Below are positions 15,984 to 32,945 of a stretch of DNA of 64,000 nt, one piece after another. The stretch covers positions 2,969,531-3,033,530 of the forward strand of contig CAWAGV010000002.1 in assembly GCA_963781725.1 (NCBI GenBank), given 5' to 3'. Made by a program: the position numbers and the translations under genes. Source of the DNA: an uncultured Alphaproteobacteria bacterium. Its GTDB lineage: Bacteria > Pseudomonadota > Alphaproteobacteria > Rhizobiales > Xanthobacteraceae. Positions within the stretch are counted from its first letter, which is position 1, and each line of letters opens with the position of its first letter. The notes below the pieces were generated by a model. It saw only the letters and a program-made list of their open reading frames with translations. It was not told the DNA's origin and made no database searches.

Positions 15984-16997
15984 TCAGGGCGGGAGAAGTT
16001 GTCGCTTGTTGTCGCGACGGCTGACGCACCGGGGTCCGAATAGCCAATGCGTCGGCATCTTTCCCGATACTGGCGATCGAAAACTCGCGATTCGATCGTC
16101 GGTCAAGGATCCGAGAAAAATGGTTTTGAGGTCCGGCCCGCCAAAAGCTATGGATGTAATTGCCGCCAGCTTATGCCCGGATGGGGTGTAATAATGCTGG
16201 CGGTTAAAAGTCTTTGCCGAGCGGGCACGCTCAATGTCTTCGATGTGGCCCGGAAGGACATCTTCGATGACGATTTCAATATTGCGATCCGGCGCGACGC
16301 GTAAAACACGATTGCTGATGACGCTGACCACCCACAAATGGCCATCGGCATCAAAAGCACAGCCGTCGGGATACGTTCCTGGCGGGAATTCAACCCAGGT
16401 CTCTCGTGGTCCAAGATCTCCAGATGGCTGCACGGCGAACCGGCTTACCCGTGCGCCGGCCGTCTCGCACACATATAGCCACGTATTCGAAGGATCTATC
16501 CGGCATTCGTTGGTTAGGGCGAGACCTTCTCCGACGACATGGGCCCCGTGCTGGTCGGCGCGGACGATAAATCCGTCGGCAATGCCGTGATTCATCGATG
16601 CTGTGCGATCCGGCGTCCGGGTGGTGCAAGTGATCCACTGGCGGTTTAGACCATCGATCAAAATGAAATTGGCCGCTTCAAGTTTGATGCCGTCGGCTTC
16701 CATGAGTCGAGGGACAGGACCATTGCCTTCGATCGCCCAAATGCCGCCGTCCCCGAGAAGATTTGCGGCAAGGATTGTTCCTTCAGCGTCGATAGCCAGG
16801 CCGTTCGGAAGAAATTGTTCCGTGTCTGTCAGTCCTTGCCGATGCCCTAAGACCTCGAAGGTGCCGTCGGGCCTGATGTGGAGTGCAGTCGCACCAGCGT
16901 GAGATGTAAACATGTCCCCGGATGCGCAACACAACACACATTCAGGGCGGCGAAACATCCGCGGAGAGAACGAAATATCATCAAGAGCTATACGCAT
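15984..16997 (-). CDS. SMP-30/gluconolactonase/LRE family protein (module copy A)
   Basis: 337 aa beta-propeller-type sequence (PNGLAID, NECRID, YPDGCAFDADGHLW, IAFGGPDLKTIFLGS). Paralog of 31968-32945. Confidence 0.85.
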   Translation of the reverse strand: MRIALDDISFSPRMFRRPECVLCCASGDMFTSHAGATALHIRPDGTFEVLGHRQGLTDTEQFLPNGLAIDAEGTILAANLLGDGGIWAIEGNGPVPRLMEADGIKLEAANFILIDGLNRQWITCTTRTPDRTASMNHGIADGFIVRADQHGAHVVGEGLALTNECRIDPSNTWLYVCETAGARVSRFAVQPSGDLGPRETWVEFPPGTYPDGCAFDADGHLWVVSVISNRVLRVAPDRNIEIVIEDVLPGHIEDIERARSAKTFNRQHYYTPSGHKLAAITSIAFGGPDLKTIFLGSLTDDRIASFRSPVSGKMPTHWLFGPRCVSRRDNKRQLLPP

Positions 16998-17010
16998 CGG
17001 GGCACAGGCT

Positions 17011-18420
17011 TTAGGCAGCTATATTCGCTATTGATCCTGCGTCTTGCGTCTCGTCGATTTTCCAACACGCAGCGATTAGTCGCTCGGCTGACTGCGGCTC
17101 CAGTATCTGGTTGCAGAGGCCTAGAAATTTTCGCTCGAGATCGCGGTCGGACATGGGCTTGGAAACGCTTCCAAGACAATGCTCAATACTCTTGGTCCAC
17201 GTTCCGTGAGCAGTCTTCACGGTGACGCGTGCGGCGTCGGGCATAAGAGAGGGCTCGGAAATAGCGTGGACTCGGTCGCGTAACGCCTTGATCGCCGGGT
17301 CCTGGACGATCTTGTCCGTATTTATGCCGATATCGCCGCGACCGGTCGCCAATGGACCTGCGGTCCAGTGGAACAGGCTAACGACAGATTCAAAGTCGTT
17401 TGCCGGATGGCGGCGATTCGTCAGAGTGATTGTGGTCGGATGCACATGGACTTCGACGCTCTGAATGTCTTCCGGGCGTAGTTTTGTCTGGTGACGAATT
17501 TGGAGGCATGCATCGACCACTGGATGAATGACAATCCCGCAAGGCCAAGGCTTGTGGGTATTAGCCATGATTTCGTAACGCTCACCGAGACCATCGGTAA
17601 GTGAATTAGGATCTGCCTTTTCAGCAAAAAGGCTGAGAAAGCCATTCGGATTCTCAAGAGAATTAGCACCGCAGGTAAATCCTGCTTGCGCCATCAGTGC
17701 CGCCCTGAGACCGCATTGGCCGGCATGGGCCGGCACCATCGCGCTGGTCATGGCAGCATGCATGGCCCGGTTGCCAGCGCCCTGGCCCGAGGCAATGCCT
17801 ATCGCCCATGTTGTGGCGGTCGCTGAAAGCTTCAGCATTTTGGCGGTTGCGGCCGCTGCGCCCACCCCACCGGTGAGGCCCGTCAAATACCATCCAACAT
17901 GGCAGTTCGCAGGGGAGACCGCGATGGCGCGGCTTAGCCGGCTTTCGATCTCGATACCCAGAACGAGCGCAGTAAGAAAATCCCGGCCGGATACCTTGTT
18001 GCTTTCGCTCATTGCCAGCAGCGGCGCAGCAATGGGCCCCGTAGGATGAAGGATAATTTCGGCGTGAGTATCGTCGAAGCTATGAACGCCGGAACTCGTA
18101 CAGTTCAACAGCGTCGCGGTGAGGACATCGGTTCGTCGGCGGCGTCCGACAATCGTGGCGCGCGGTTCGCCACCGACCGGCAGCAGAGCTTTCTCAGCGA
18201 CGGCGATATTTTCATGTTGCGATCCGCCAATGGCGCATCCGAGCCAATTCAATAGCGCACGCTTGGCTTCGTGACGAACCTCTTGCGGGAGGTCCTCCCA
18301 CCTGTGCATCAACACGAATTCCGCCAATTGAGTGGCCAGCGTTGAGCTCATCACGCCGTTGGTGCTGCCGTTACTCGCTTTCGACGGTGAGAGGGGGCCA
18401 GCCACGGCGCTAGATGCCAT
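17011..18420 (-). CDS. MmgE/PrpD family protein (module copy A, paralog 2)
   Basis: 469 aa; DDTHAEIILHPTGP, GWYLTGLTGGVGAAAA, IGIASGQGAGNRAMHAAMTS. The start overlaps the upstream SDR-like gene by 11 nt. Confidence 0.9.
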   Translation of the reverse strand: MASSAVAGPLSPSKASNGSTNGVMSSTLATQLAEFVLMHRWEDLPQEVRHEAKRALLNWLGCAIGGSQHENIAVAEKALLPVGGEPRATIVGRRRRTDVLTATLLNCTSSGVHSFDDTHAEIILHPTGPIAAPLLAMSESNKVSGRDFLTALVLGIEIESRLSRAIAVSPANCHVGWYLTGLTGGVGAAAATAKMLKLSATATTWAIGIASGQGAGNRAMHAAMTSAMVPAHAGQCGLRAALMAQAGFTCGANSLENPNGFLSLFAEKADPNSLTDGLGERYEIMANTHKPWPCGIVIHPVVDACLQIRHQTKLRPEDIQSVEVHVHPTTITLTNRRHPANDFESVVSLFHWTAGPLATGRGDIGINTDKIVQDPAIKALRDRVHAISEPSLMPDAARVTVKTAHGTWTKSIEHCLGSVSKPMSDRDLERKFLGLCNQILEPQSAERLIAACWKIDETQDAGSIANIAA

Positions 18421-19192
18421 GGCTCACCCCGCCGTCGATCAGAAGGGAGGTACCCTGGAAATAGGATCCCTTTTCAGTGACGAAAAGCTCGACCACGTTG
18501 GCAACGTCCACCGGCGTCCCGAACCGACGAACGCCGAATTCCTTGGCATAGATTGCTTCCGCTTGATCGCGCGGAATTCCTCTTTCTTTTGAATAGCCGT
18601 CCAGCCATTCATTAAGCCGCCGTCCGGCTATCCAGCCCGGCGCAACGCAATTCACCGAGACATCGTCCTGGATGCCGGTTTCGGCTATTGCCTTTGCAAA
18701 ATTGAGAATGGCCGCGCAGATCGAACCGCTGATAACCGACTCGCCGTGAGGCTCGATGCCTCTGAGCCCGGACAACATGACGACGTTGCCCTTGCGCGCT
18801 TTTAGGTGCGGCCATGCCGCCGTGACGATGCAGACAGCGCTGAAAAACATCAAGGAAAAGGCGTCTTCCCAATCGCGCCGGGTTGCTGAAGCAACATCGA
18901 CGCGCTTGAAATCGCCGGCGCAAGTTACAACGATGTCCAGAGCGCCAAATTTGGCGAGTGTTTCTTTGATAACCGCATCCGGTGCGCCTGCTTCCCGCAA
19001 GTCATACTGACCAATCATGGCAGATCGGCCAGTGTCCCGCTTAATCTCCTCTGCGACACGATCAAGCTTTGCCTTTGTCCGCCCGATGATCGCCACATCT
19101 GCGCCCAGTCTTGCAAGGCGCGTCGCAATCGCGCTGCCCAGATCACCACTGGCTCCAGATACAAGTGCGACTTTGTTCTTGAGTTCGGTCAT
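18410..19192 (-). CDS. atypical SDR-like NAD(P)-binding protein lacking YxxxK (module copy A)
   Basis: 260 aa. Rossmann motif VSGASGDLGSAIA. Where Y-x-x-x-K is expected the sequence reads SGSICAAILNFAKA. Confidence 0.85.
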   Translation of the reverse strand: MTELKNKVALVSGASGDLGSAIATRLARLGADVAIIGRTKAKLDRVAEEIKRDTGRSAMIGQYDLREAGAPDAVIKETLAKFGALDIVVTCAGDFKRVDVASATRRDWEDAFSLMFFSAVCIVTAAWPHLKARKGNVVMLSGLRGIEPHGESVISGSICAAILNFAKAIAETGIQDDVSVNCVAPGWIAGRRLNEWLDGYSKERGIPRDQAEAIYAKEFGVRRFGTPVDVANVVELFVTEKGSYFQGTSLLIDGGVSHGI

Positions 19193-19305
19193 AACGCGCT
19201 CGGGAAGGTTGGTGGGATGCCAAAGATGCGAGCCAGCGCAATGTCAAAAAGCGGAAGCAGCGCCAGCTGGCCTTGACTGAGAATCTTGGATGAACTGATG
19301 CTCCT

Positions 19306-19315
19306 CCCCCCCCCC
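19306..19315. repeat. homopolymeric C10 (G10 on minus strand) tract in a divergent promoter region
   Basis: CTCCTCCCCCCCCCCAATTG read directly. It lies 114-123 nt upstream of the SDR-like start (19192) and 261-270 nt upstream of the ACAD start (19576). Confidence 0.9.
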
Positions 19316-19474
19316 AATTGCCGCGCTTCTCGTAACGGGCGTGATGCTTCTTGGTTTTTGATCGCCAAAACGATTGCAATAAATATCAGACCAAAATAGA
19401 ATTGTCGAGGTTTCGATAAATATTCAGTTTAGTCAGTATGTTACCTCGATGCCTTCTTGCCGGTAGGCCAAGAG

Positions 19475-19505
19475 TTGTCAAATGGTCCAATTTTTTAATT
19501 GACAA
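19475..19505. promoter_or_regulatory. inverted repeat TTGTCAA-N17-TTGACAA, candidate operator in the shared control region
   Basis: 7-bp perfect arms read directly. The site is in an AT-rich stretch 71 nt upstream of the ACAD start. No cognate regulator is identified. Confidence 0.35.
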
Positions 19506-19575
19506 GGCGCTGGCCCGTATAGGACTAGCGGCATTAGCCTAATCAAGCGACATAGAAATCGACCGGGAGGAGTGA

Positions 19576-20760
19576 GTGACAGGTTCGAATAGCGACGGTG
19601 CGTGGGAACTACCCGACGAATTCCGGTCTCTTAGAGACACTGCCCGTCGTTTCATGCGCAACGAAGTTTTGCCCGAGGAGGCGAAACTTTCTCATGATGC
19701 CATTGCGCTGCCGAAGGACGTTTTGACCGGCCTGCAGAAGAAAGCGAGAGACCTTGGTTTCTGGCAAATCGAGTCTCCTTCTGAGTGGGGCGGGGCGGGC
19801 CTCAATCTTCTCGGTCAGGCGGTCGTTGCGGAAGAGTCCTCCCAATGCAAAATGGGTGCGTATATCCCTGCCTGTCACGCGTTCGGGTGGGATCCGCCGA
19901 ATGCGATTTTTCTCGGCCGCAAGGATCAGATTGAAAAGTACGCTGTCTCGACCCTGGATGCCGGTGACAAGACATTCGTTGCGATTTCCGAACCGAGTGG
20001 TGGATCGGATCCGGGCCGTGCAATTCAGACCAGAGCCGAGCGGCGCGGCGATCGTTATGTTTTGAATGGAACGAAAACCTGGATTTCCGGCGTAGGCGAA
20101 TCTGAATGGGGGCTCGTGTTTGCCCGAACGGGCCCAAGCAAAGGACGCGACGGCGTCACTGCGTTCATCGTCGAAAAAGCATTTAAGGGCTTCAGCTACA
20201 AGCCGATCCCGGTAATCAGATCCTATTCGCCGTACGAAATCAGCCTGGCCGATTGCGAAGTTCCGGAAGAAAATCGGTTGGGCAACGAAGGCGAAGGATT
20301 CAAACTGGCCGAGACGTGGTTGGTCCATGCTCGAATCCCTTATGCGGCTGCCGTTATCGGTATCGCTCAGGCCGCCCTGGAACTGACGATCGACTGGGCA
20401 CGAGATCGAAAAACGTTCGGGTCTGCGCTCGCCGATAAACAGGCGATCCAGTGGATGCTGGCAGACTCCGAGATTGAACTGCGCGCGGCGCGGCTTTTGG
20501 TCTATCAGGCTGCATGGCGCGGCGATCTCGGTCTCGACATCAAAGTCGATGCCTCGATCGCCAAGGTTTATGCCACGGAAACCGCAGGCCGCGTGGTCGA
20601 CCGATGCATTCAGATCTTTGGCGGTCTCGGTGTTGCGCAAGAAATGCCGCTTGAACGCTGGTACCGCGAACTAAGGATCAAGCGTATCGGAGAGGGGCCG
20701 TCGGAGGTACACAGAATGGTCGTCGCCCGTAACCTCTTTGGCCAGCGCCGCGGAGGCTGA
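19576..20760 (+). CDS. acyl-CoA dehydrogenase family protein
   Basis: 394 aa, GTG start after GGGAGGAG. C-terminal IFGGLGVAQEMPLERWYRELRIKRIGEGPSEVHRMVVAR is a typical ACAD signature region. Confidence 0.9.
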   Translation: MTGSNSDGAWELPDEFRSLRDTARRFMRNEVLPEEAKLSHDAIALPKDVLTGLQKKARDLGFWQIESPSEWGGAGLNLLGQAVVAEESSQCKMGAYIPACHAFGWDPPNAIFLGRKDQIEKYAVSTLDAGDKTFVAISEPSGGSDPGRAIQTRAERRGDRYVLNGTKTWISGVGESEWGLVFARTGPSKGRDGVTAFIVEKAFKGFSYKPIPVIRSYSPYEISLADCEVPEENRLGNEGEGFKLAETWLVHARIPYAAAVIGIAQAALELTIDWARDRKTFGSALADKQAIQWMLADSEIELRAARLLVYQAAWRGDLGLDIKVDASIAKVYATETAGRVVDRCIQIFGGLGVAQEMPLERWYRELRIKRIGEGPSEVHRMVVARNLFGQRRGG

Positions 20761-20761
20761 G

Positions 20762-21535
20762 ATGTCGATTGATTTCACAGTCGAAGAGAATATCGCGACG
20801 ATTACCATCAATCGTCCCGAGCGCCTCAACGCAATGGACGCAGAGCATTATCAAGGGCTGTCAGCAGCCTGGACACGCGTTCGCGACGACAACGATATCC
20901 GCGTCGCCATCGTGACGGGCGCCGGCGAACGCGCGTTTAGTACCGGCGCCGATATCAAAAGCTTTCTGACAGCGCCGACCGAGTTGCGTGAGATGTGGCT
21001 GACACAGCGTGAGCAACTTCTCAATCGCGGTCTTGAAGTCTGGAAGCCGGTCATCGCCGCCGTCAACGGATATTGTCTGGCCGGTGGCATGACGCTGCTG
21101 CTGGCGACGGACATCCGCATTGCCGCAGAGCACGCTACCTTCAGTGTCGCCGAGGTGAAGCGGGGCATAATTCCCGGCAACGGCGGCACGCAGCGCATTC
21201 TTGAGCAGTTGCCTTACGCAATTGCTATGGAACTTCTGCTGACGGGAGATGCGATCGATTCCGCGACGGCTGCCCGCTTCGGCTTGATTAACAAGGTTGT
21301 GACTAAAGAAACTTTGATGGACGAAGCAAGGGTAATGGCGCGCCGGATCGCCGCCAATGCACCGCTTGCGGTCCAGGCAGCCAAAGAACTTGCCGTTCGT
21401 TCACGGGAAATGGATCGCACGACCGGCTTCAGGGTCGAAGCGCTGATCACCAGGCTTTTGCAATTTACCGATGACGCAAAAGAAGGCCCTGCGGCGTTTG
21501 CAGCCAAGCGGCCGGCCGAATTCAAAGGAGGATAG
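20762..21535 (+). CDS. enoyl-CoA hydratase/isomerase (crotonase) family protein
   Basis: ATG 20762 sits 1 nt after the ACAD stop with GGAGG upstream. ITINRPERLNAMD and AAVNGYCLAGGMTLLLATDIRIA are crotonase motifs. Confidence 0.9.
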   Translation: MSIDFTVEENIATITINRPERLNAMDAEHYQGLSAAWTRVRDDNDIRVAIVTGAGERAFSTGADIKSFLTAPTELREMWLTQREQLLNRGLEVWKPVIAAVNGYCLAGGMTLLLATDIRIAAEHATFSVAEVKRGIIPGNGGTQRILEQLPYAIAMELLLTGDAIDSATAARFGLINKVVTKETLMDEARVMARRIAANAPLAVQAAKELAVRSREMDRTTGFRVEALITRLLQFTDDAKEGPAAFAAKRPAEFKGG

Positions 21536-21536
21536 G

Positions 21537-22736
21537 ATGTCCAGTCAGCGTCCATATCCGCTTGCCGGTATCGTCGTTCTTGATCTCAGTCAGATCTACA
21601 ACGGTCCCTACGCGACATTTCTCCTCGCTCAGGCCGGCGCCGATGTGATCAAGGTCGAACCGCGCAATGGAGAGCATTTGCGACGCCGTGGGGCGCTGAG
21701 TGCGGCTGCGTTGCCGTTCGCAATGCTGAACCCCAACAAGCGTTCAGTGTCTCTTGACCTAAAGACCGAGAAGGGCCGCGAACTATTGTTGAAGCTCGCC
21801 GCGCGAGCGGATGTGCTGGTGGAGAATTTCGCGCCGGGCGCGATGGAACGGCTCGGGCTCGATTACCAAAAAGTCCGCAAGGTGAACCCGCGGCTAATCT
21901 ATGCATCGAGCTCGGGATACGGAAGCTCGGGACCCTATCGGAATTATCCTGCGATGGACCTGACGGTGCAGGCGATGTCCGGAATCATGAGCATCACTGG
22001 TTTTGACGATCGACCGCCAGTGAAGTCAGGCCCTGCCGTTTGCGATTTTTTTGCTGGCGTTCACCTTTACGGAGCGATCGTCACCGCGCTTTTTGAACGG
22101 GAACGAACCGGTCAGGGGCGCGCTGTTGAAGTGGCGATGCTCGAGTCGGTGTACATGTCGTTGGCCTCGAACCTCAGCCTTTCCCACAGCAGGGGCTGGA
22201 AGGACACGCCGCGCACCGGGAATCGGCACGGTGGTCTCGCCGAGGCGCCCTACAATGTCTATCCGACGAAATCCGGTCACATCGCCATCATCTGCGTCGG
22301 CGAACAGCATTGGAAGAACCTCCTCAAAGCTATGGGCCGTGAGGATCTTGATTCGGATCCGCGCTTCCAGTCGATGAAAGACCGCGCCTTGAATATCGAC
22401 GTCGTCGATCAGATCGTGAGCGATTTTAGCAAGAATTTTGAGACCAACGAGCTGTTTGATGTTCTGCTGAAGTATCGTGTGCCCTGTGCTCCAGTTCGCA
22501 CGCTCGAAGACGTGGTCAATGATCCACATTTGCACGAGCGAGGCATGCTTCAGTGGATTGACCATCCTTCGCTGGGCCGGATTGTCGTGCCGGGGAGCCC
22601 GATGCGTTACGAGGGTGCTTCCCCTTTGCCGCACAAGGTCAGTTCCGAGCTGGGCACAGACAACGAAGATGTCTTGAGCAGCCTTGGTCTTTCCAAGGCA
22701 GAGATAAATCAACTCAAAGACGAAAAGGTCATTTGA
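21537..22736 (+). CDS. CaiB/BaiF family III CoA-transferase
   Basis: ATG 21537 after AAAGGAGGA. GIVVLDLSQIYNGPYATFLLAQAGADVIKVEP is the typical N-terminus. Confidence 0.9.
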   Translation: MSSQRPYPLAGIVVLDLSQIYNGPYATFLLAQAGADVIKVEPRNGEHLRRRGALSAAALPFAMLNPNKRSVSLDLKTEKGRELLLKLAARADVLVENFAPGAMERLGLDYQKVRKVNPRLIYASSSGYGSSGPYRNYPAMDLTVQAMSGIMSITGFDDRPPVKSGPAVCDFFAGVHLYGAIVTALFERERTGQGRAVEVAMLESVYMSLASNLSLSHSRGWKDTPRTGNRHGGLAEAPYNVYPTKSGHIAIICVGEQHWKNLLKAMGREDLDSDPRFQSMKDRALNIDVVDQIVSDFSKNFETNELFDVLLKYRVPCAPVRTLEDVVNDPHLHERGMLQWIDHPSLGRIVVPGSPMRYEGASPLPHKVSSELGTDNEDVLSSLGLSKAEINQLKDEKVI

Positions 22737-23860
22737 TGGACGGCCGTTACGTCATTGCTGGAATTGGACATACTGAATTCGGGCGTCTGCCTGAACGCAG
22801 TACTCTGTCGATGAATGCTGAGGCCTGCAAAAATGCCCTCAAGGATGCAGGAATAGACAAGTCGGTCGTCGACGGATTGCTGGTCAAGGTGCCGACGTCG
22901 AAATACGACGCGATGTACGGCCAGACCCTTGCGGAAAATTTGCGTCTGCAGCCCAAGGTCGGCGGCGTTTGGGATCAGGGCGGTGCGACCAACATCAGCA
23001 TGATCTCATTTGCCTGTATGTCGATCGATGCCGGGCAGTGCGACATTGCGCTCGTATGTCTTGCCGATAATCCCAAAACCGGAACGCGCCAGGCTTATGA
23101 AAAAGGGTGGGGTCCTGATTCAGCCTATGGGTGGTTCAGCATTGCCGCCGGTTACGCGCTCATCGCGCAACGTCACAAAGCCGAATATGGGACGACGTCG
23201 GAGCAGCTCGGCGCCATTGCAGTCGCGTGTCGAAACAATGGCGCAAACAATCCGCATGCGCACCTGCGTCTGCCGCTGACGATCGATCAGTACATGAAAT
23301 CGCCTTACATCATCGAGCCGTTGCGACGCGATGACATTTGTCTGGTCTCCGACGGTGCGGCCGCTGTGGTAATCATGAGCGAAAAGCGGGGGCGGGAACT
23401 TAAAGTTGCGATGCCTGTCCCCATCCTCGGCTTTGGCCAGGCCCATACCTCTTGGGACGTACCGCTTCGTCCGGTGCTGACGTCGACTGCCGCGCGAGAC
23501 TCGGCGCAGACCGCATTCCGAATGGCCGGATTGACGCCGAAAGATATCGATGTCGCGCAGATTTACGACTGCTACACGATCGCTGCGTTGATGACGCTGG
23601 AAGACTACGGCTTTTGCAAAAAAGGCGAAGGCGGCCGGTTCGTCGCCGAGGGCAACATTGCTCCGGGTGGGAAGCTGCCGATCAACACGAGCGGCGGATT
23701 GCTTTCCGAAACCGGCATGCCTGGACTGCAAATGGTGATGGAGGGCGTTCGCCAGATGCGCGGGACCTCAGTCAATCAGGTGCGTGGCGCCAAAAAGTGC
23801 GTCGTCAGCAACCAAGGTGGCATCATGACAACTCATTCGACACTTCTGTTGGGGCAATAA
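22736..23860 (+). CDS. thiolase-fold protein (SCP-x / lipid-transfer type), possibly non-thiolytic
   Basis: ATG 22736 overlaps the upstream TGA (TGATG). VIAGIGHTEFGR and NTSGGLLSETGMPG show the thiolase fold. I could not find the usual nucleophile C-A-T/S-G (reads GGATNIS) or the GHP His (reads TGMPG). Confidence 0.8.
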   Translation: MDGRYVIAGIGHTEFGRLPERSTLSMNAEACKNALKDAGIDKSVVDGLLVKVPTSKYDAMYGQTLAENLRLQPKVGGVWDQGGATNISMISFACMSIDAGQCDIALVCLADNPKTGTRQAYEKGWGPDSAYGWFSIAAGYALIAQRHKAEYGTTSEQLGAIAVACRNNGANNPHAHLRLPLTIDQYMKSPYIIEPLRRDDICLVSDGAAAVVIMSEKRGRELKVAMPVPILGFGQAHTSWDVPLRPVLTSTAARDSAQTAFRMAGLTPKDIDVAQIYDCYTIAALMTLEDYGFCKKGEGGRFVAEGNIAPGGKLPINTSGGLLSETGMPGLQMVMEGVRQMRGTSVNQVRGAKKCVVSNQGGIMTTHSTLLLGQ

Positions 23861-23861
23861 A

Positions 23862-24257
23862 GTGAGTTATCCGCTTCCCGAGATTACACCTTTATCCAAG
23901 CCTTACTGGGATGCACTTCAGGAAGGGCGCCTGTGTTTTCAGCAATGTGAATGCTGTGGCCACGCTTGGCTGCCGCCGCGCGCCGAATGTCCCGAATGCT
24001 GGGAGTGCAAATGGCAGTGGAAGACCGCGTCAGGTAAAGGCCGCCTCATAAGCTGGGTCGTCTATCACCACGCCTATCATCCCGAATTCAAAGCGCGCTT
24101 GCCTTATAACGTGGCGCTCGTCGAATTGGACGAAGGGCCGCGTCTCATCACCAATATTGTGAACGTTAACGATCGCAAGCTCGACATCGAGCTTCCGGTC
24201 AAATTGCGCATCGAGAAAGAACAGGACTTTTCGCTAGCCAGATTCGAGCTGGCGTAG
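23862..24257 (+). CDS. Zn-ribbon OB-fold protein (DUF35 family), thiolase partner
   Basis: 131 aa; four-Cys ribbon CECCGHAWLPPRAECPEC followed by an OB-like domain. The start is 1 nt after the thiolase-fold gene stop. Confidence 0.85.
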   Translation: MSYPLPEITPLSKPYWDALQEGRLCFQQCECCGHAWLPPRAECPECWECKWQWKTASGKGRLISWVVYHHAYHPEFKARLPYNVALVELDEGPRLITNIVNVNDRKLDIELPVKLRIEKEQDFSLARFELA

Positions 24258-25633: not shown

Positions 25634-25707
25634 ACGCGATGGTCCCTGGTTGGAGATGGGAACGGATACCCCGTTTCGGTCCGCATGGCGGCCGATGACG
25701 TCACCGG

Positions 25708-26763
25708 TCAGTCGAGAGAGATGTGCTCCGATTTGATCAATGGACCCCAAAGGGCTTTTTCCTGATCCATCAGTTTAACGAAGTCTTCCGGAGATCCGCC
25801 GAGCGGCTCCGAACCGATTATTTCGATCTGCTTGCGAACTTCCGGATTCTTCAGCGCATCGTTCATCGCTTTTCCGATGGCGCTTACGACATTCGCGGGG
25901 AGTCCGGCTGGACCCATGATGCCGTTCCAGGTGGTGGCTACAATGTCGAGACCGGATTCACGGAAGGTCGGGACATTTGGCAAAAAGCTGACTCGCTCTG
26001 CGCTTGCCGTGTTCAGCAGCTTCAGCGAGGAAACTTGTGGCACATAAGACGGGAAACCGATGTTGATGTGTCCGCCCATTACGTCCGTTATCAGCGGCGC
26101 GGTGCCGTTGTAGCTGATCAAAATACCCTTCAGCCCTGTCTTTGCGAGGAATAGCGCTCCGGTAAGGTATTCGATGCCGCCCAAGCCGCCGCTGCCGATT
26201 GTCAATTTGCCGTTTTGGGACTGGGCATAGGCCTTTAAATCCTGAAGATTGTTGATTGGAAGCGCAGGGTCGACTGCGAGTACGACAGGGACTTGACGCG
26301 TTAAAACGATGGGCGTGAATTCGCTGTCGGAATCGTAGGTCAGCTTCTTGTAGAGCATTTTGTTGAAGACCGACGGTCCTGAACCTCCAACGACAAGCGT
26401 GTAGCCGTCGGGCTTCGATTTCCCGACGTAAGTCATGCCAACCGCGCCATTGGCGCCGGCACGGTTTTCCACGACAACAGATTGTCCCAGTCTCTTGGAG
26501 AGCTCCTGCGCATAAAGACGGGCCGCGACGTCCATGCTGCCTCCGGCAGCGTAAGGCACGATCAGGGTGATAGGCCGCGTTGGCCAAGCATCATCAGCCG
26601 CGGCGGGCAGGGGCGATAACAGGAGCTGCGTCGCCAAAGCGGCAAAAAGCGCGACAACGAGAGCGCGCCGTATGAAGGTCCCGAATCCGGGACGTATTGG
26701 CGTAACTGGCAAGGCATCTCCCCCGTTTGCGGTGGCCGCTTTTCTGGCGTTGTTGACCAGCAT
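25708..26763 (-). CDS. Bug family TTT substrate-binding protein
   Basis: WPTRPITLIVPYAAGGSMDV after a hydrophobic leader. The true start may be downstream of 26763. Confidence 0.85.
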   Translation of the reverse strand: MLVNNARKAATANGGDALPVTPIRPGFGTFIRRALVVALFAALATQLLLSPLPAAADDAWPTRPITLIVPYAAGGSMDVAARLYAQELSKRLGQSVVVENRAGANGAVGMTYVGKSKPDGYTLVVGGSGPSVFNKMLYKKLTYDSDSEFTPIVLTRQVPVVLAVDPALPINNLQDLKAYAQSQNGKLTIGSGGLGGIEYLTGALFLAKTGLKGILISYNGTAPLITDVMGGHINIGFPSYVPQVSSLKLLNTASAERVSFLPNVPTFRESGLDIVATTWNGIMGPAGLPANVVSAIGKAMNDALKNPEVRKQIEIIGSEPLGGSPEDFVKLMDQEKALWGPLIKSEHISLD

Positions 26764-26882: not shown

Positions 26883-27851
26883 ATGACCGGGAAAGTCGGC
26901 AAATTGATCGACGTGCAGCATCATTTGTATCCGCCAAAGTTCCTGGCGGAACGCCGTGAGGCCCTGCTCAAGTTTTCACCCGGATTTCCGCACATCGTGG
27001 ATTGGACGCCGCAGCAGTCCATCGATGACATGGATCGAAACGGATGTGCGGCTGCCGTCTTGTCAGCCGGGCCTCCCGGCGTTTGGCTCGGAGAAACCGA
27101 ACAAGCGCAAAGACTGACCTCAATTATAAACGAATTCGGCGCCGAACTCGTTTTGAAGTATCCGAAGCGGTTTGGTTTTCTCGCGACATTGCCGCTGCCG
27201 GATGTCGATTTTTCGCTCCGTCAAATCGAAAATGTCTTCGACAACCTTCACGCCGACGGCATCGGCCTGATGTCGAGCTATGACGGAAAATGGCCCGGTC
27301 ATCCCGACTTCGCTCCGATTTTCGATGAACTCAACCGGCGCGGCAGTGTTGTGCAGTTTCATCCGACGGCTGGCCGCCATACACAGGGCCTGCTGCGCGA
27401 GCCGGCACCGCCGATCATCGAATTTCTATTCGACACCACGCGAGCAATTACGGATTTGCTCTACAGCGGCACGTTTGCGCGGTGTCCAAACATCCGCTGG
27501 ATATTCCTGCACGGCGGCGGCACCTTGCCGTTCCTGGCCGATCGTATCGGCATGTGGGCCAGAGCAAAGAAGACCGACGCCGCGCTGATGGCGCGCATTC
27601 CAAATGGCGTCGAATATGAGTTGAAACGGCTTTATCTGGACGTCTGCTCGATGTGCAATCCGGTTTCGATGGGGGCGATTCTCAAATTTGTTCCGAGCAA
27701 TCAACTGATGTTCGGCTCTGACGCGCCGTTCTTCTCGATTGCCAGCGCCCTGGAAGAATTCGATACGGTTCGTCCCCTTCTGACAGAAGGGCAAATCGCC
27801 GATATTCAATACAATACGGCTGCCGGCCTGTTTCCGAGACTTGCGCAGTAA
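26883..27851 (+). CDS. amidohydrolase-2 family protein (ACMSD / LigI-type decarboxylase or lactonase superfamily)
   Basis: GGAGGAAA RBS. N-terminal metal motif IDVQHHLYPP and C-terminal LMFGSDAPF are typical of PF04909-type enzymes. Confidence 0.8.
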   Translation: MTGKVGKLIDVQHHLYPPKFLAERREALLKFSPGFPHIVDWTPQQSIDDMDRNGCAAAVLSAGPPGVWLGETEQAQRLTSIINEFGAELVLKYPKRFGFLATLPLPDVDFSLRQIENVFDNLHADGIGLMSSYDGKWPGHPDFAPIFDELNRRGSVVQFHPTAGRHTQGLLREPAPPIIEFLFDTTRAITDLLYSGTFARCPNIRWIFLHGGGTLPFLADRIGMWARAKKTDAALMARIPNGVEYELKRLYLDVCSMCNPVSMGAILKFVPSNQLMFGSDAPFFSIASALEEFDTVRPLLTEGQIADIQYNTAAGLFPRLAQ

Positions 27852-27885: not shown

Positions 27886-28608
27886 TCATTCGACGATGCT
27901 GCTGGCCAAATTGCTGTAAGCCGCAATATGCCGACGCATGCGGCGGAAAGCGGCCTCGCCGTCTTGCTCAATGATGGCTTCCAGAACGCGTCCATGAACC
28001 TTGATGACCTGACGGCGCAAATCCGCAGTGTGCAGGCTTTGGTATTCGGTCGCCGCATAAATGGGCCGTGAAATGGCATCAACGAAGGTAATCAAAAGCT
28101 CGTTCTTGCTGGCTTTGACCACGGCAAGGTGCCATTTGAGGTTGACCTTCGCAAAGCGTGCAAAATCCCCGGAGAGGCTTTCAAGCTCCTCGTGGATCAT
28201 TCGCATTTCCTGAAGGTCTTCTTCGGTCCTGTGCAAAGCTGCCAGCCGCGCTGCGGCTGGTTCGACTAACTCGCGCGCTTCGATGAGTGCATCGAAACGA
28301 ACGCCGTGACTGCGCAGAAAAAGCTCGAACGAACGAGAAATCAACTCGCGCGTTGGGCGTCGAATTGCCGATCCACCGTTGCGGCCAGCGCGCGTGGCTA
28401 TTAGCCCTTCAGTTTCGAGAACGCGCAGGGCTTCACGGACGGACCCGCGGCTCAACCCCGACTGAGCGACAAGCTCGCGTTCGGTGGGTAAAGGAGTTCC
28501 TTCGGGCAGGCGTTCATCGAGAATAAGCTCTCGAAGTCGGTCTGCCAGCACGTCGGAAGCTTTGGGTACCGATACCGCGAGGCTCTCGAGCTTTAGTGAA
28601 CTGCGCAT
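27886..28608 (-). CDS. GntR family transcriptional regulator (FadR/FCD subfamily)
   Basis: 240 aa; wHTH LPTERELVAQSGLSRGSVREALRVLETEGLI plus a helical FCD-like domain. Divergent from the DLH / module B operon. Confidence 0.9.
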   Translation of the reverse strand: MRSSLKLESLAVSVPKASDVLADRLRELILDERLPEGTPLPTERELVAQSGLSRGSVREALRVLETEGLIATRAGRNGGSAIRRPTRELISRSFELFLRSHGVRFDALIEARELVEPAAARLAALHRTEEDLQEMRMIHEELESLSGDFARFAKVNLKWHLAVVKASKNELLITFVDAISRPIYAATEYQSLHTADLRRQVIKVHGRVLEAIIEQDGEAAFRRMRRHIAAYSNLASSIVE

Positions 28609-28731
28609 GCAGTTTCTCCGTGTGGAAACATGGCCGGCAAGTCGGGCGATATTATCCGACCAAAAACCTTTTGCCCTTGTGTCGGCAGCAGGATGACTTG
28701 GTTAGGCCGAGCGATCGTACACCATTTTTTT

Positions 28732-28758
28732 TGCATAACACTTTGATATTATGCATAA
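28732..28758. promoter_or_regulatory. TGCATAA-N10-TTATGCATAA palindrome set, candidate GntR operator
   Basis: TGCATAA (28732-28738) is the reverse complement of TTATGCA (28749-28755). TTATGCATAA (28749-28758) is itself a perfect 10-bp palindrome. It lies in a strongly AT-rich 400-nt divergent intergenic region. Confidence 0.4.
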
Positions 28759-29008
28759 AACTATAGAGTAGTAAGGCGCTAAATTCGGCAAATTGGGAAA
28801 GCGACAGGCCTACCCAGTTTGGTCTAACAATTACATTATTATTTGACGAACGCTGACGGGACATCTAGGTTCATTATATCGACATTGATCGGAAGTTCCA
28901 GCTCCTCACCACTTAAAAGAGTGCCCGAGCTCCCCGGAGCAATGTTGGCCTTACAAACGCGACAGTGCGGGTTTGCCGCCGTCGAACCAGCTTTTGAGGG
29001 GAGGGAAC

Positions 29009-29785
29009 ATGCGAGACCGTATGGTCGATATCGCGACGCCCGAAGGCGCGATGAATACATTCTTTTGCCAGCCCGAGGGGGCCGGGCCGTTCCCCGCGGT
29101 TGTGATCTACATGGATTTTTGGGGCTTTCGCGAGGAGCTTTTCGATCTCGTGCGTCGCGTCGCGTCTGTCGGCTATTACTGCATCATGCCGAATTTCTAT
29201 TATCGCCAGGGCAAGAAGGTCAGCCACGCATTCTATGATGAAAAAGGCCGAATGATTTCGTTTGAGACGCTGGACGAGGAGCGTCAGAAAATTGCGCTGG
29301 AGCCGCTCAACAATTTGTCCAACGCAATGGTCGTGCGCGATACGAAGTCGCTACTCGATTTCATGTTCAATGGAGAGCCGGTGCGGCGAGGCGCCATTGG
29401 CTCGATCGGCTACTGCATGGGCGGACGGCACGTGCTCTGTGCGGCCGGGAACTTTCCGGAGTTCTTTCGTGCGGGCGCCAGCCTTCACGGCACCAATCTC
29501 ATCCTCGATCAGGAGGATTCTCCGCATCATCTGGCCGACAAGTTTCGCGGAGAACTGTACTGCGGATTTGCCGAAACTGACCCCTATGCCAAGCCCGAAC
29601 TTATCCGCCGTCTAGGCGAGATCATGGCGAAGTGTCCCTTCGTGGATTATCGCTATGAGATCCATAAAGGCGCAGATCACGGCTACGCTCTGCCGGATCG
29701 CGATGTCTACCACAAACAGGGCTCGAATCGCGATTGGGAGCTCATGCTCGCGATGTTTCGTCGGCAATTGCCACCCTTTCCATAA
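29009..29785 (+). CDS. dienelactone hydrolase family protein
   Basis: ATG 29009 after GAGGGGAGGG. The nucleophile elbow G-Y-C-M-G (SIGYCMGGRH) is characteristic of DLH Cys hydrolases. Confidence 0.85.
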   Translation: MRDRMVDIATPEGAMNTFFCQPEGAGPFPAVVIYMDFWGFREELFDLVRRVASVGYYCIMPNFYYRQGKKVSHAFYDEKGRMISFETLDEERQKIALEPLNNLSNAMVVRDTKSLLDFMFNGEPVRRGAIGSIGYCMGGRHVLCAAGNFPEFFRAGASLHGTNLILDQEDSPHHLADKFRGELYCGFAETDPYAKPELIRRLGEIMAKCPFVDYRYEIHKGADHGYALPDRDVYHKQGSNRDWELMLAMFRRQLPPFP

Positions 29786-29818
29786 ACACACTTGATACTC
29801 GCAAAACAGGAGAACGCG

Positions 29819-30601
29819 ATGGCGGCTCTCGTCGATCGATGCGCGATCATTGCGGGCGGTAGCGGGGATATCGGAAGCGCGATCGCCTTAAAGCTGGCTG
29901 AGCTCGGCATCAACATATCGCTTGCCGGGCGTACGCAATCGAAGCTCGATACTGTTGCAGCGCGATTGCGGCATGAGGCCGGGCGCGAGGCCCTGGTGAC
30001 ATCCTGCGATTTGAGAAAAGCCGGTGCCGCAGCCGATCTGGTCGAGAAAACCGTGAGCAAATTCGGACGGCTCGATATCGTCGTGACTTGCGCCGGCGAT
30101 TTCAAGCGCGGGACTGTCGTATCGGTGCCGCGGGATGACTGGGAAGACGGCTTTGCATTGATGTTTCACGGCGCCGTCGGTCTGGTATCGGCATCGTGGC
30201 CGCATCTAAAGGCAGCAACCGGACACGTCGTGATGATCTCCGGCATTCATGGCGTCGAGCCGCATGCCGAGTCGATCATCGGAGGTGCGATTTGCGCGGC
30301 GCTATTGAATTTTGCCAAGGCCGCATCACAGACCGGCAGACAGGACAAAGTGTCCGTGAATAGCATTGTCGCCGGATACCTGCAGGGGCGACGCCTTAAC
30401 GGCATGGTGGACAAGCTCGCCAACGAGCAAAACCTTGCGAAGGAAGAAGCAAGACAGGTTTTTGCAGATAAACTCGGCCTGCAGAGATTCGGAACGCCGG
30501 AGGATGTGGCTAATATCGTTGAGCTGATGATTAGCGAGAAGGGATCGTATCTGCAGGGATCCGCCATCGTTCTCGATGGCGGTGTTACCCATGGCCGCTA
30601 A
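29819..30601 (+). CDS. atypical SDR-like NAD(P)-binding protein lacking YxxxK (module copy B)
   Basis: ATG 29819 after AGGAG. Rossmann motif AGGSGDIGSAIA. The expected YxxxK position reads GGAICAALLNFAKA. Paralog of 18410-19192 (shared LDIVVTCAGDFKR, RFGTP.DVAN.VEL). Confidence 0.85.
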   Translation: MAALVDRCAIIAGGSGDIGSAIALKLAELGINISLAGRTQSKLDTVAARLRHEAGREALVTSCDLRKAGAAADLVEKTVSKFGRLDIVVTCAGDFKRGTVVSVPRDDWEDGFALMFHGAVGLVSASWPHLKAATGHVVMISGIHGVEPHAESIIGGAICAALLNFAKAASQTGRQDKVSVNSIVAGYLQGRRLNGMVDKLANEQNLAKEEARQVFADKLGLQRFGTPEDVANIVELMISEKGSYLQGSAIVLDGGVTHGR

Positions 30602-31958
30602 CGATAGTTCTTTGGCGAATGAGACCATCGCAAGCCGCCTGGCCGATTTCATCGTTGCACTGCGCTGGGAAGTTGTCGAAGAACGCGTCCGCCATGAAGT
30701 TAAGCGGGCATTTTTTAACTGGCTCGGTTGTGCCGTCGGTGGTTCGAAACACGGCAGTATAGCTTTGGCGCAGGCCGCACTCCTGCCGGTCGCGGGCGCC
30801 CCGCAGTCAACCATCATCGGGCGGCGGCAGCGCACCGACATGCTGACGGCATCGCTCCTTAACTGTACAAGCTCAAGTGTCTACGGCTTCGACGACACGC
30901 ACGCCGAGACCATACTGCATCCGACTGGTCCTGTGGCCGCGGCCCTTCTCGCCTTGTCCGAAACGACACCGATCTCGGGGCAGGACTTCCAGTTGGCGCT
31001 CTTGCTCGGGGTCGAAATCGAGAGCCGGCTCAGCAAAGCGATTGCGGTCGCGCCTGCGCGATGCAAGGTAGGCTGGTATCTTACCGGACTGACCGGCGGC
31101 GTCGGCGCCGCCGCTGCTGCAGGTCTTGTTCTCGGGCTAACACCGCAGCAGATTGTGTGGGCAATGGGCATAGCCTCGGGTCAGGGCGCAGGAAATCGTG
31201 CAATGCACGCCGCGATGACGAGCGCATTGGTGCCCGGTCATGCCGCATATTGCGGCTTGCGCGCGGTGCTTCTGGCCAAGGCCGGTTTCACATGCGGGGC
31301 CAATTTCATCGAGAACCCCAACGGCTTTCTCAATTTGTTTGCCGAGGAACCAAATCCGAAGGCCCTGTTCGACGGTCTTGGCGAGCGCTACGAGATCATG
31401 GCAACCAACTACAAGCCATGGCCTTGCGGGATTGTGCTTCACGCGATGGTGGACGCCTGTCTCCAGATCTATCGGCACCAGCGGATTGCTGCCGCCGATA
31501 TCGCTCGCATCGAAGTGACGGTCCATCCAACGGCAATTACGCTTGGCAACCGGCCTAATCCGACCGACGATCTTCAGGCGATCGTCAGCCTGCATCACTG
31601 GGCAGCTGCGACACTTGTCCGCGGTCAGTCCGGAATCGATGTTCTGGACATGAGCACCATAACCGATCCGGAAATAGCCAAAACGCGCAGCAAGGTTCAC
31701 GCTGTTGCGAGTGATGCCCTCGCGCCGGATGCTGCTCGGGTTCTGATCGAAACTACAGCCGGCACAAGACTCGGAGCCGAAGTCGAGCATTGCCTGGGCA
31801 GTGCGACGCGGCCGATGTCCGATGGTGACCTTGAGGCTAAATTCCGGGCACAGTGCACCGGGATTATCGACGAGAAATGCGCTGATGGGCTCGTTCTGGA
31901 ATGTTGGCGTCTCGATCAATGTGCCGACATGGCGGAGCTTGGACGATTGGCTGCCTGA
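30591..31958 (+). CDS. MmgE/PrpD family protein (module copy B, paralog 3)
   Basis: ORF from 30576. ATG 30591 gives the same 11-nt overlap with the SDR-like stop as in copy A. It shares long identical strings with 17011-18420. Confidence 0.9.
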   Translation: MAANDSSLANETIASRLADFIVALRWEVVEERVRHEVKRAFFNWLGCAVGGSKHGSIALAQAALLPVAGAPQSTIIGRRQRTDMLTASLLNCTSSSVYGFDDTHAETILHPTGPVAAALLALSETTPISGQDFQLALLLGVEIESRLSKAIAVAPARCKVGWYLTGLTGGVGAAAAAGLVLGLTPQQIVWAMGIASGQGAGNRAMHAAMTSALVPGHAAYCGLRAVLLAKAGFTCGANFIENPNGFLNLFAEEPNPKALFDGLGERYEIMATNYKPWPCGIVLHAMVDACLQIYRHQRIAAADIARIEVTVHPTAITLGNRPNPTDDLQAIVSLHHWAAATLVRGQSGIDVLDMSTITDPEIAKTRSKVHAVASDALAPDAARVLIETTAGTRLGAEVEHCLGSATRPMSDGDLEAKFRAQCTGIIDEKCADGLVLECWRLDQCADMAELGRLAA

Positions 31959-31967
31959 GATACGACG

Positions 31968-32945
31968 ATGCCCATAGCACTTGACGATCTGCTTTTCTCT
32001 GAGCCGATTTTCAGTAGGCCTGAATGCGTGTTGTGCTGCGCGTCAGGCGATATCTTTGCTTCCCACAAAGGCGCCAGCGTCCTTCACGTTCGGCCTGATG
32101 GAAAAAGTCGTGTGCTGGGTTTCGTTTCCGGCTTCACCGATACCGACAAGTTCCTTCCAAACGGCATTGCACTCGCGCGCGACGGTGCGCTGTTCATTGC
32201 CAACATTGCCGGCGAGGGGGGCGTCTGGCGTACCGGGACTGATGGCGCGCTGGGTCCGTATCTGATGGAAGTCGACGGTACCAAGCTTGTTGCAGCCAAT
32301 TTCGTCTGGTTTGATCGCTTGAACCGGATGTGGATCACTTGCAGTACGCGATCCGCCGATCGTTCCGCCCCGATGAACGAAAACGTCAGAGATGGCTTTG
32401 TCGTGCTGGTGGATGATCGCGGTCCGCGCATCGTAGCGGACAGCCTTGCCTTCACCAACGAATGTCGAATCGATGGAGAAGGCAAGGCACTCTACGTTTG
32501 CGAAACCGCAGGCTACAGCATCAGCCGCTTCCCGATCCGTTCATCTGGGGAGCTTGGGCCTCGCCAACTGTTCGTCGAGTTTGCCCCGGGGACTTATCCC
32601 GACGGATGCGCGTTTGACTCAGCCGGCCATCTCTGGATGGCGAGCCCCGTCAGTAATCGTGTGATCCGTGTCAGTCCGGACGGGCGACAAGAAACCGTGA
32701 TCGAGGACTCGGTGCCTGGTCATATTGAAACGGTGGAAGCTGCCCGTGCGCGCGGCCGGTTTTCGCGCGATCATTTCTACATGAAGTCCGGCGAGCGTTT
32801 GGAGGCGATCACATCGGTAGCGTTCGGCGGAACTGACCTGCGAACGATCTATCTCGGCTCGCTGACGAACAGGCAACTCGTGTCATTCCGGTCGGATGTC
32901 GCTGGCGAAGCACCGGTCCATTGGAATTTTAATCGCGCATTCTAA
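31968..32945 (+). CDS. SMP-30/gluconolactonase/LRE family protein (module copy B)
   Basis: 325 aa. Shares RPECVLCCASGD, FLPNG, NECRID, GTYPDGCAFD and ITS.AFGG.DL.TI.LGSLT with 15984-16997. Confidence 0.85.
   Translation: MPIALDDLLFSEPIFSRPECVLCCASGDIFASHKGASVLHVRPDGKSRVLGFVSGFTDTDKFLPNGIALARDGALFIANIAGEGGVWRTGTDGALGPYLMEVDGTKLVAANFVWFDRLNRMWITCSTRSADRSAPMNENVRDGFVVLVDDRGPRIVADSLAFTNECRIDGEGKALYVCETAGYSISRFPIRSSGELGPRQLFVEFAPGTYPDGCAFDSAGHLWMASPVSNRVIRVSPDGRQETVIEDSVPGHIETVEAARARGRFSRDHFYMKSGERLEAITSVAFGGTDLRTIYLGSLTNRQLVSFRSDVAGEAPVHWNFNRAF

Follow-up and report, generated by a model that had tools for sequence, protein, structure and literature searches.

Why should a single stretch of alphaproteobacterial DNA encode the same unusual set of three proteins twice, in opposite orientation, and what might these proteins do? 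The question is raised by 64,000 nucleotides of contig CAWAGV010000002.1 (positions 2,969,531 to 3,033,530; assembly GCA_963781725.1) from an uncultured member of the Xanthobacteraceae, referred to here as the window. The original prediction, made from the letters of the window without database searches, described an inverted pair of gene triads, each encoding a protein that resembles short-chain dehydrogenases/reductases (SDRs) but lacks the catalytic YxxxK motif, an MmgE/PrpD-family protein and an SMP-30-type lactonase. The analysis reported here indicates that the triads are two lineages, A-type and B-type, that separated long ago within a single rare and conserved catabolic module, which probably degrades an unsaturated lactone-type acid. 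As an uncharacterised arrangement of proteins from known superfamilies, the module is a rare variation on the usual catabolic operon.

The six open reading frames (ORFs) and their inverted arrangement were verified, and the pattern goes beyond chance. Copy A, on the minus strand, consists of the SDR-like gene (18410..19192, 260 residues), the MmgE/PrpD-family gene (17011..18420, 469 residues) and the SMP-30/gluconolactonase-family (SGL) gene (15984..16997, 337 residues). The corresponding genes of copy B, on the plus strand, lie at 29819..30601 (260 residues), 30591..31958 (455 residues) and 31968..32945 (325 residues). Families were assigned by a Pfam scan against the curated (gathering) cut-offs, all of which were far exceeded. 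The SDR-like proteins scored 104-116 bits with adh_short/adh_short_C2 (copy A, 110 bits with adh_short) against cut-offs of 26.6-27. Both MmgE/PrpD domains were detected in both PrpD-like proteins, with 186-206 bits for MmgE_PrpD_N and about 106 bits for MmgE_PrpD_C (206 and 106 in copy A) against a cut-off of 32.1. The SGL proteins of copies A and B scored 81.5 and 83.7 bits against 26.3, and each contains the motifs PEC, PNG, TNE and PDG, which are candidates for the expected metal ligands Glu/Asn/Asn/Asp. In pairwise BLASTP the identity between the copies was 54% for the SDR-like proteins (E 5e-111), 58% for the PrpD-like proteins (E 0.0) and 58% for the SGL proteins (E 6e-144), which fits the estimate of half to two-thirds made by eye. 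The shared strings that had been quoted are present in the translations, except that the PrpD string proper is GIASGQGAGNRAMHAAMTS, the preceding residue being Ile in copy A and Met in copy B.

The duplication is old, since at the DNA level the copies match at no more than 72% over 311 nucleotides, plus a 116-nucleotide stretch. Each copy has closer relatives elsewhere. SDR-like A is 90% and 85% identical to the database proteins P0001 and P0002, while SDR-like B is 81% identical to P0010 and 72-75% identical to P0003, P0005 and P0006; in this comparison A and B share 53% of residues. An A-type SDR-PrpD-SGL-HbpS set on a metagenome contig (L167) shows 85, 78, 74 and 92% identity to its counterparts in the window. 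B-type sets, (DLH-)SDR-PrpD-SGL, occur in L170 and L171 with 67-81% identity, the values for the dienelactone-hydrolase-family (DLH), SDR, PrpD and SGL proteins of L170 being 81, 67, 70 and 72%. In neighbor-joining trees, A and B fall in separate subclades in all three protein families. Since each copy has nearer relatives in other organisms and the trees split A from B, the pair is best described as an ancient duplication of the module or two acquisitions and not as a local inverted duplication, as had been suspected from the moderate similarity.

Nine independent modules were counted, namely copies A and B of the window and those of loci L001, L004, L005, L007, L167, L170 and L171. The SGL gene is present in all nine and the PrpD gene in seven; a DLH gene was found in six of the seven modules that could be evaluated for it and a GntR/FCD regulator gene in all five. 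The unit is larger than the three-gene module first proposed and also includes GntR/FCD and DLH genes and, in some loci, Amidohydro_2, HbpS-like, TctC and β-keto-acid cleavage enzyme (BKACE) genes and a block of genes for CoA-dependent enzymes. In L001 the order is BKACE ... TctABC, PrpD-DLH-SDR-GntR-Amidohydro_2 with the SGL gene on the opposite strand; the BKACE, which adjoins the module, is 72% identical to that of the window. In L007, from an alphaproteobacterial metagenome-assembled genome (MAG), genes for Amidohydro_2, DUF35, enoyl-CoA hydratase, acyl-CoA dehydrogenase (85% identical to that of the window) and GntR are divergent from DLH-SDR-PrpD-SGL. In L004 and L005 genes for a Liv-type ABC transporter, with DLH-SDR-SGL behind them, are divergent from the GntR gene, and no PrpD gene lies within about 10 kb. 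The DLH gene adjoins the SDR-like gene in L001, L004, L005, L007 and L170 (69-81% identity), Amidohydro_2 homologues of 60-75% identity lie beside the module in L001 and L007, and GntR/FCD homologues of 51-82% identity flank it in L001, L004, L005 and L007. The membership of the module and its conserved gene set are stated with high confidence. In L007 the SDR, PrpD and SGL genes appear split into several frames (10001-13000), probably by frameshift errors of a long-read assembly.

The accessory genes of the window surround both triads. Downstream of the copy-A triad, on the minus strand, the operon continues with an HbpS-like/GlcG (DUF336) gene (15495..15923; Pfam HbpS-like, 127 bits), whose homologue occupies the same place after the SGL gene in L167. 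It is followed by a gene for a TctC (Bug) periplasmic carboxylate-binding protein (14468..15436; 164 bits), which has a 4-nucleotide overlap with the last gene of the operon, encoding the BKACE (13473..14471). The latter scored 541 bits with NCBIfam NF053538, the 3,5-dioxohexanoate:acetyl-CoA acetone transferase equivalog, above its cut-off of 430, and matches BKACE15 (PDB 8rip, E 8e-140), an enzyme that accepts β-ketohexanoate, 3,5-dioxohexanoate and 5-hydroxy-β-ketohexanoate. The CoA block (19576..24257, plus strand) sits between the copies, divergent from copy A, and by Pfam encodes an acyl-CoA dehydrogenase, an enoyl-CoA hydratase, a family-III CoA-transferase, a thiolase-like protein and a DUF35/OB-fold protein. 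The CoA-transferase is nearest to formyl-, mesaconate- and glutarate-CoA transferases in NCBIfam, all below cut-off, and was placed closest to enzymes that act on dicarboxylates. Ahead of copy B lie the genes for Amidohydro_2 (26883..27851, plus strand; Pfam), which belongs to the non-oxidative decarboxylase branch (PDB 2f6k, 1e-27; ACMSD, IDCase and LigW, about 1e-19), and for the regulator with Pfam GntR and FCD domains (27886..28608, minus strand), divergent from the copy-B operon. The first gene of that operon encodes the DLH protein (28973..29785, plus strand, with a probable ATG start at 29009; Pfam DLH, 113 bits), which has the Cys-type nucleophile motif GYCMGG (G-x-C-x-G-G).

The unusual component of the module is the SDR-like protein. 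As predicted, the catalytic Tyr and Lys are gone; the Y-x-x-x-K position reads SGSICAA in copy A and GGAICAA in copy B, YxxxK occurs nowhere in either sequence, and the conserved Cys occupies the Lys position in the alignment. That description was incomplete, since the catalytic Ser and Asn are likewise replaced. In the clade formed by these proteins and their close relatives, here called the ICAA clade, alignment with canonical SDRs showed Tyr replaced by Ser or Gly, Lys by Cys, the catalytic Ser by Gly and the tetrad Asn by Met, so that N-S-Y-K becomes M-G-S-C in copy A and M-G-G-C in copy B. A Rossmann glycine motif does exist, as had been noted; however, in all members it is S/A-G-x-S-G-D-x-G with GxxGxxG spacing and not the classical TGxxxGxG, and NNAG is changed to TCAG. 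Two residues, Arg38 (after β2) and Asp64, have been kept and hint at an NADP(H) site. About 55 positions are invariant in the clade, including the pocket-loop residues E147, P148, I158, N164, F165 and K167, and H149 and C159 are nearly so. Every clade member has C91, within TCAG, and 15 of 16 have C159, in the place of the Lys; P0014 and P0206 have Ala at the Cys position.

The AlphaFold2 model of SDR-like A was confident, with a pLDDT of 94.5, and gave TM-scores of 0.85-0.94 to SDR structures. The top Foldseek match was AerF with bound NADPH and 4-hydroxyphenylpyruvate (6jhb; E 1.6e-24, TM 0.90), and AerF was also the best full-length sequence match in the PDB (6jh7; E 8e-30, 29% identity), a lower whole-protein E-value being obtained only with the two-domain 2et6. 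AerF (6JH7/6JHA/6JHB), a relative of BacG/YwfH (3U49), is an NADPH-dependent alkenal C=C reductase of Choi/aeruginosin biosynthesis. Like the window proteins it has an SDR fold of classical length, no YxxxK (KSGVVNAAL at that position), a small residue in place of Tyr, a G-x-E-P loop after β5 and, further downstream, N-F-x-K. AerF differs in its TGxxxGxG and NN(S) motifs and in having Asn where Lys is expected and Lys where the tetrad Asn is expected; the corresponding features of the window proteins are GxxGDxG, TCAG, Cys and Met. Furthermore, AerF is biosynthetic and cyanobacterial, whereas the window module is catabolic and its L007 relative comes from an alphaproteobacterial MAG.

A profile search was made of 1.84 billion protein representatives clustered at 50% identity, and the top 150 were inspected. 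Most were AerF-like, with Tyr replaced by Gly, Ala or Ser, Lys by Asn, and the tetrad Asn by Lys in a swap-like manner; another group had Tyr replaced by Ser and Lys by Arg, as in Q9HYA2 (3lf1). The number of AerF-like proteins means that SDRs without YxxxK are not new, and the original prediction overlooked this large known group, which includes an active C=C reductase. The ICAA signature was found in only two or three of the representatives (P0001, P0205 and P0206, the last with Ala). A sister clade of about 40% identity, here called N-type, has Asn at the Lys position and L-K-F where the window proteins have L-M-F and AerF has G-K-L. Close relatives of the SDR-like proteins occurred in one (L007) of 185,579 species representative genomes. 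Scans of genomes and metagenomes with the ICAA alignment were dominated by the unspecific string LDIVVTCAG and returned actinobacterial SDRs of about 30% identity, with one new true relative each, L007 and L087 (which is L005). No ICAA member was found by tblastn in 72,556 plasmids, which yielded N-type SDRs of at most 39% identity; these adjoin LeuCD-like dehydratases or CoA enzymes, a context that is only loosely informative. By these comparisons, the Cys/Met/TCAG variant is a very small, distinct offshoot of the YxxxK-less SDRs. Other SDR folds work or persist without Ser-Tyr-Lys, among them Q9HYA2 of P. aeruginosa (3LF1, described as having an "atypical catalytic center") and SimC7, which carries out a substrate-assisted ketoreduction (PMC5039031), but they have other replacement residues and neither has Cys for Lys together with Met for Asn. 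N-type SDR genes adjoin genes for LeuCD-type dehydratase subunits in L172 (Aquabacter spiritensis, 5926-8786) and L179 (Bradyrhizobium guangxiense p53363, 6887-9809); such neighbours in two unrelated alphaproteobacteria hint that the wider SDR subfamily acts on substituted maleate- or malate-type acids.

Characterised MmgE/PrpD-family proteins are 2-methylcitrate dehydratase, cis-aconitate decarboxylase, IDS epimerase and (S)-(R)-methylsuccinate isomerase, which act on C4-dicarboxylate backbones with a proposed enolate intermediate (PMC12290011; PMC9875883). The nearest solved relatives of the window proteins were IDS epimerase (PDB 2HP0; E about 1e-26 to 1e-28, 2e-26 for copy A) and then IRG1/CAD. 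Alignments to 2hp0 and 7bra, with reference residues from PMC12290011, showed that the window proteins retain DD, two His residues (those of DDxH and GHP) and the YK Lys. In both copies the GWH His is replaced by Tyr (GWY) and the MTK Lys by Ser (MTS), at the equivalents of two carboxylate-binding residues; otherwise the window proteins have both domains and the DD, DDxH, GHP and YK residues in common with the characterised family, which comprises 2HP0, the methylsuccinate isomerase (PA0881 and C. necator), cis-aconitate decarboxylase and 2-methylcitrate dehydratase. The same replacement pattern (S/Y and S/T at those columns) was seen in 119 of the 119 best database relatives, which places the proteins in a large uncharacterised subclade. 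No NCBIfam equivalog was reached by the PrpD-like proteins, and a true 2-methylcitrate dehydratase PrpD was rejected, since the best NCBIfam score, 28.6 bits, falls far short of the cut-off of 950. In L175 and L177, which represent the wider subclade, the PrpD-like gene has neither an SDR nor an SGL gene beside it. A third MmgE/PrpD-family gene of the window (4321-5817, plus strand) retains the MTK Lys and has Gln at the GWH position. It adjoins a UGSC-family gene and a 356-residue ORF that has no Pfam or NCBIfam match (2654-3250, 3314-4384), and UGSC genes adjoin a PrpD homologue in L175 as well.

The SDR-like and PrpD genes overlap by 11 nucleotides in both copies, as originally observed, the junctions reading ...CCATGGCATCTAG and ...CCATGGCCGCTAA. 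The overlap between the SDR-like stop and the PrpD start is ATGGCATCTAG in copy A (18410..18420, minus strand) and ATGGCCGCTAA in copy B (30591..30601, plus strand). In each, the PrpD ATG is formed by the SDR-like His codon CAT and the G of the following codon, and the C-terminal codons D-G-G-V-(S/T)-H-G of the SDR-like gene supply a G-rich, Shine-Dalgarno-like stretch. Public gene calls agree on the PrpD starts at 30591 (455 residues) and 18420 (469 residues). Outside this genome the triad recurs in the same order, and the 11-nucleotide junction is kept in five of six SDR-to-PrpD junctions, with homologous junctions in L167-169 (with a GTG start), L170 and L007; L171 has an 18-nucleotide spacer instead. 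The overlap is thus an inherited feature of the SDR-PrpD gene order, through which the two genes are probably coupled in translation, and it gives no evidence of an obligate complex. The further claim that it reflects obligatory co-translation was not supported by the comparison, because PrpD is missing from two of the nine modules (L004 and L005, where the SDR-like gene stands between the DLH and SGL genes) and reordered in a third (L001, PrpD-DLH-SDR).

The two divergent promoters of the module share two sequence boxes. Box 1, TATC(A/C)GACCAAAA, and box 2, TGGTCYAA-N8-25-TTGAC, are confined, within the window, to these two promoters, the one separating copy A from the CoA block (19193..19575; box 1 at 19384-19396, box 2 at 19483-19503) and the one separating the GntR gene from the copy-B operon (28609..29008; box 1 at 28653-28665, box 2 at 28820-28847). 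Ahead of A-type SDR genes (L168, 225-235; L169, 16-26) box 1 stands out as a conserved stretch where the surrounding DNA has diverged, and a related site is present in the GntR-DLH spacer of L007 (8648-8657). Box 2 is present in the GntR/operon divergent promoters of L007 (8803-8832), L004 (4595-4620) and L005 (2132-2157), with one unrelated match among 179 loci; it is these loci outside the window that lend the boxes their weight. The TGGTC core resembles FadR/FCD-type half-sites. The boxes are candidate operators of the GntR/FCD regulator, and copy A, the CoA block and copy B probably constitute one regulon of this protein. A run of ten C residues (19306-19315) lies inside the divergent promoter between the SDR-like A and acyl-CoA dehydrogenase genes.

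What reaction sequence could unite these proteins? No characterised pathway came up in the literature for the triad or for any of its parts, in agreement with the original remark that none was known to use this set. In the scheme proposed here an unsaturated lactone or enol-lactone carboxylate would be taken up, TctC or Liv-type binding proteins accompanying the module, and the lactone ring would be opened by DLH, SGL or both. The SDR-like protein would then reduce a conjugated C=C bond or enone with NADPH, as AerF does without Tyr or Lys. The PrpD-like protein might use enolate-type chemistry to epimerise, isomerise or decarboxylate the product at the carbon beside a carboxylate, and in some lineages Amidohydro_2 might remove a further carboxyl group. 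The products would be a C5-C6 β-keto acid, which BKACE would cleave with acetyl-CoA, or a substituted dicarboxylate that enters the CoA block, or both. Dienelactones/maleylacetate, 2-pyrones and paraconate- or itaconate-type lactones are guesses at the substrate class. The role of the SDR-like protein as a C=C reductase also has a parallel, by analogy only, in the mint SDRs, in which replacement of the catalytic Tyr by Glu turns keto-reduction into ene-reduction (PMC4988501). Module and chemistry taken together, this is the best explanation available, and we give it an even chance of being right; the chemical steps themselves are tentative and have somewhat poorer prospects.

Several observations weigh against this explanation. 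The ICAA proteins depart from AerF at the positions that mark out the AerF-like enzymes: the Lys position holds Cys and not Asn, the tetrad Asn position holds Met and not Lys, NNAG has become TCAG and the glycine motif contains an Asp, so that NADPH binding and reductase activity are extrapolations. Given the loss of the GWH His and MTK Lys equivalents, the PrpD-like proteins may act on something other than a classical 1,4-dicarboxylate. Copy A lacks a DLH gene, and of the nine modules only copy A and L001 contain or adjoin a BKACE gene, most of the remaining contigs not reaching far enough to judge. If PrpD A started instead at an in-frame ATG that lies 23 codons downstream, the overlap would disappear, and comparison with L167 showed that the N-terminus of PrpD A is non-conserved and of low complexity. 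Both box patterns were defined post hoc from the two promoters of the window, and their statistics within the window are circular because the patterns derive from those same two regions.

The possibility was considered that the modules are a variant of the phloroglucinol/triacetate route, or of the breakdown of a 2-pyrone of the triacetic-acid-lactone type, that ends at BKACE. The BKACE score above the 3,5-dioxohexanoate equivalog cut-off, the acceptance of 5-hydroxy-β-ketohexanoate and 3,5-dioxohexanoate by BKACE15 and the nearby Amidohydro_2 of the aromatic-acid decarboxylase branch are in line with this. The phloroglucinol pathway (PGR, DPGC, TfD and TAL), whose triacetate lyase has been characterised (PMC10470551), shares the triacetate-lyase-type terminal BKACE with the window. 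However, the window differs from it in lacking a cyclase-family hydrolase among the ORFs scanned, in its atypical SDR-like protein, which does not have the residues of a standard reductase, and in its additional DLH, SGL and PrpD proteins, to which the published pathway assigns no role; moreover, BKACE accompanies only some of the modules. No cyclase-family dihydrophloroglucinol cyclohydrolase was found in the 46 ORFs scanned (608-50248), and a canonical phloroglucinol cluster was rejected on that ground. A variant of the route is unlikely. The component sets of the L-ascorbate and sugar-lactone pathways do not match, and these were rejected as well.

It is also improbable that the SDR-like protein is a dead Rossmann-fold pseudoenzyme that serves as a structural or regulatory partner in an obligate complex with PrpD formed through coupled translation, a reading that takes up the complex suggested in the original prediction. 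All four tetrad residues and NNAG are replaced, the glycine motif is changed, the 11-nucleotide overlap is inherited in both lineages (in L007, L170 and L167-169 as well as the window), and inactive SDR subunits exist, such as BbsC in BbsCD. Against this, the gene occurs without a nearby PrpD in L004 and L005 and is separated from it by the DLH gene in L001, and overlaps of 4, 8 and 11 nucleotides are frequent in operons and no sign of a complex. The 55 or so invariant positions, pocket-loop residues among them, point to a conserved ligand site, and the nearest relatives, which also lack YxxxK, include active enzymes such as AerF.

Two readings centre on the cysteines. One, decidedly unlikely, is that the ICAA clade is a new catalytic solution in which Cys substitutes for Lys in thiol-assisted isomerisation or non-canonical hydride transfer, paired with the PrpD-like protein in a new pathway for unsaturated lactones. 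Another, which we consider very unlikely, is that C159 and C91 carry out non-redox, thiol-dependent chemistry, for example cis-trans or allylic isomerisation by Michael addition, beside the PrpD-like isomerase, which would be a reaction type new to the SDR fold. The near-complete conservation of both cysteines is compatible with such chemistry, as are the extreme rarity of the signature and the loss of both holders of the nicotinamide ribose, the classical Lys and the relocated α4 Lys of AerF-like proteins, whereas the Ala in P0014 and P0206 and the NADP(H)-site-like GxxGxxG, Arg38 and Asp64 speak against it. Finally, a recent inverted duplication of the segment or an artefact of assembly, which the shared gene order, the inverted orientation and the separation of about 10 kb might suggest, is ruled out for practical purposes by proteins only 54-58% identical, by the want of near-identical DNA arms, by closer orthologues of each copy outside this genome and by unlike flanks (HbpS/TctC/BKACE on one side, GntR/DLH on the other).

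The preferred reading, that the module degrades an unsaturated lactone-type acid, has partial precedents. In the chlorocatechol and hydroxyquinol pathways a Cys-type DLH is followed by maleylacetate reductase, which uses NAD(P)H to reduce a conjugated C=C bond and yields a β-keto acid. The window likewise has a Cys-type DLH, and a β-keto acid formed in this way could pass to BKACE; however, maleylacetate reductase belongs to the iron-type alcohol dehydrogenase family and not to the SDRs, and the module has no ring-cleavage dioxygenase. The itaconate-methylsuccinate cluster of Pseudomonas and Cupriavidus (PA0878-0883), which serves branched C5 dicarboxylates, likewise combines an MmgE/PrpD isomerase, a lactonase (for 2-hydroxyparaconate), an acyl-CoA dehydrogenase, a family-III CoA transferase and a hydratase. 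Its lactonase, in contrast, has a glyoxalase fold and is neither SMP-30 nor DLH, its PrpD belongs to another clade, a citramalyl-CoA lyase takes the place of the thiolase-like/DUF35 pair, and it has neither an SDR-like protein nor BKACE.

Should the chemistry be confirmed, the module would provide a new active-site variant of the SDR superfamily, with Cys for Lys and without Tyr, Ser or Asn, and a first functional foothold in the large MmgE/PrpD subclade, more than 1,000 proteins of which (at E <= 1e-40) are now mislabelled "2-methylcitrate dehydratase". It would also link a catabolic route for a lactone-type natural product to the BKACE enzymes, whose physiological roles are mostly unknown. 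The presence of two diverged copies in one probable regulon would amount to a natural experiment on substrate or stereoisomer specialisation. The ecological weight of the module is probably small because the clade is very rare, with one member in 185,579 species representatives and two or three in 1.84 billion proteins.

Other features of the window lie beside or between the modules. Seven TctC ("Bug") genes are present within 40 kb (starts 1513, 6693, 12372, 14468, 25708, 35692 and 39459), and no TctA or TctB gene was seen among the window ORFs scanned. Many TctC genes are typical of Betaproteobacteria of the Alcaligenaceae or Comamonadaceae type. A gene for an NtaA/DmoA-family FMN monooxygenase (24269-25750, minus strand; 578 bits against a cut-off of 280) stands between the modules, and a second luciferase-like monooxygenase (40497-41837) and a flavin reductase (42887-43414), both on the plus strand, are encoded beside them. 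Two adjacent SDR genes on the minus strand (8219-9052 and 9049-9864), followed by a DctP gene, overlap by 4 nucleotides; one product has a canonical YATSK, and the other has YSTSN, with Asn for Lys, and the odd glycine motif GPGWGNG. The two may form a heteromeric pair. The G+C content climbs from about 0.57 to 0.62-0.65 around 44 kb (about 44000-64000 of the window), which suggests that the catabolic island and the DNA on its right differ in compositional history.

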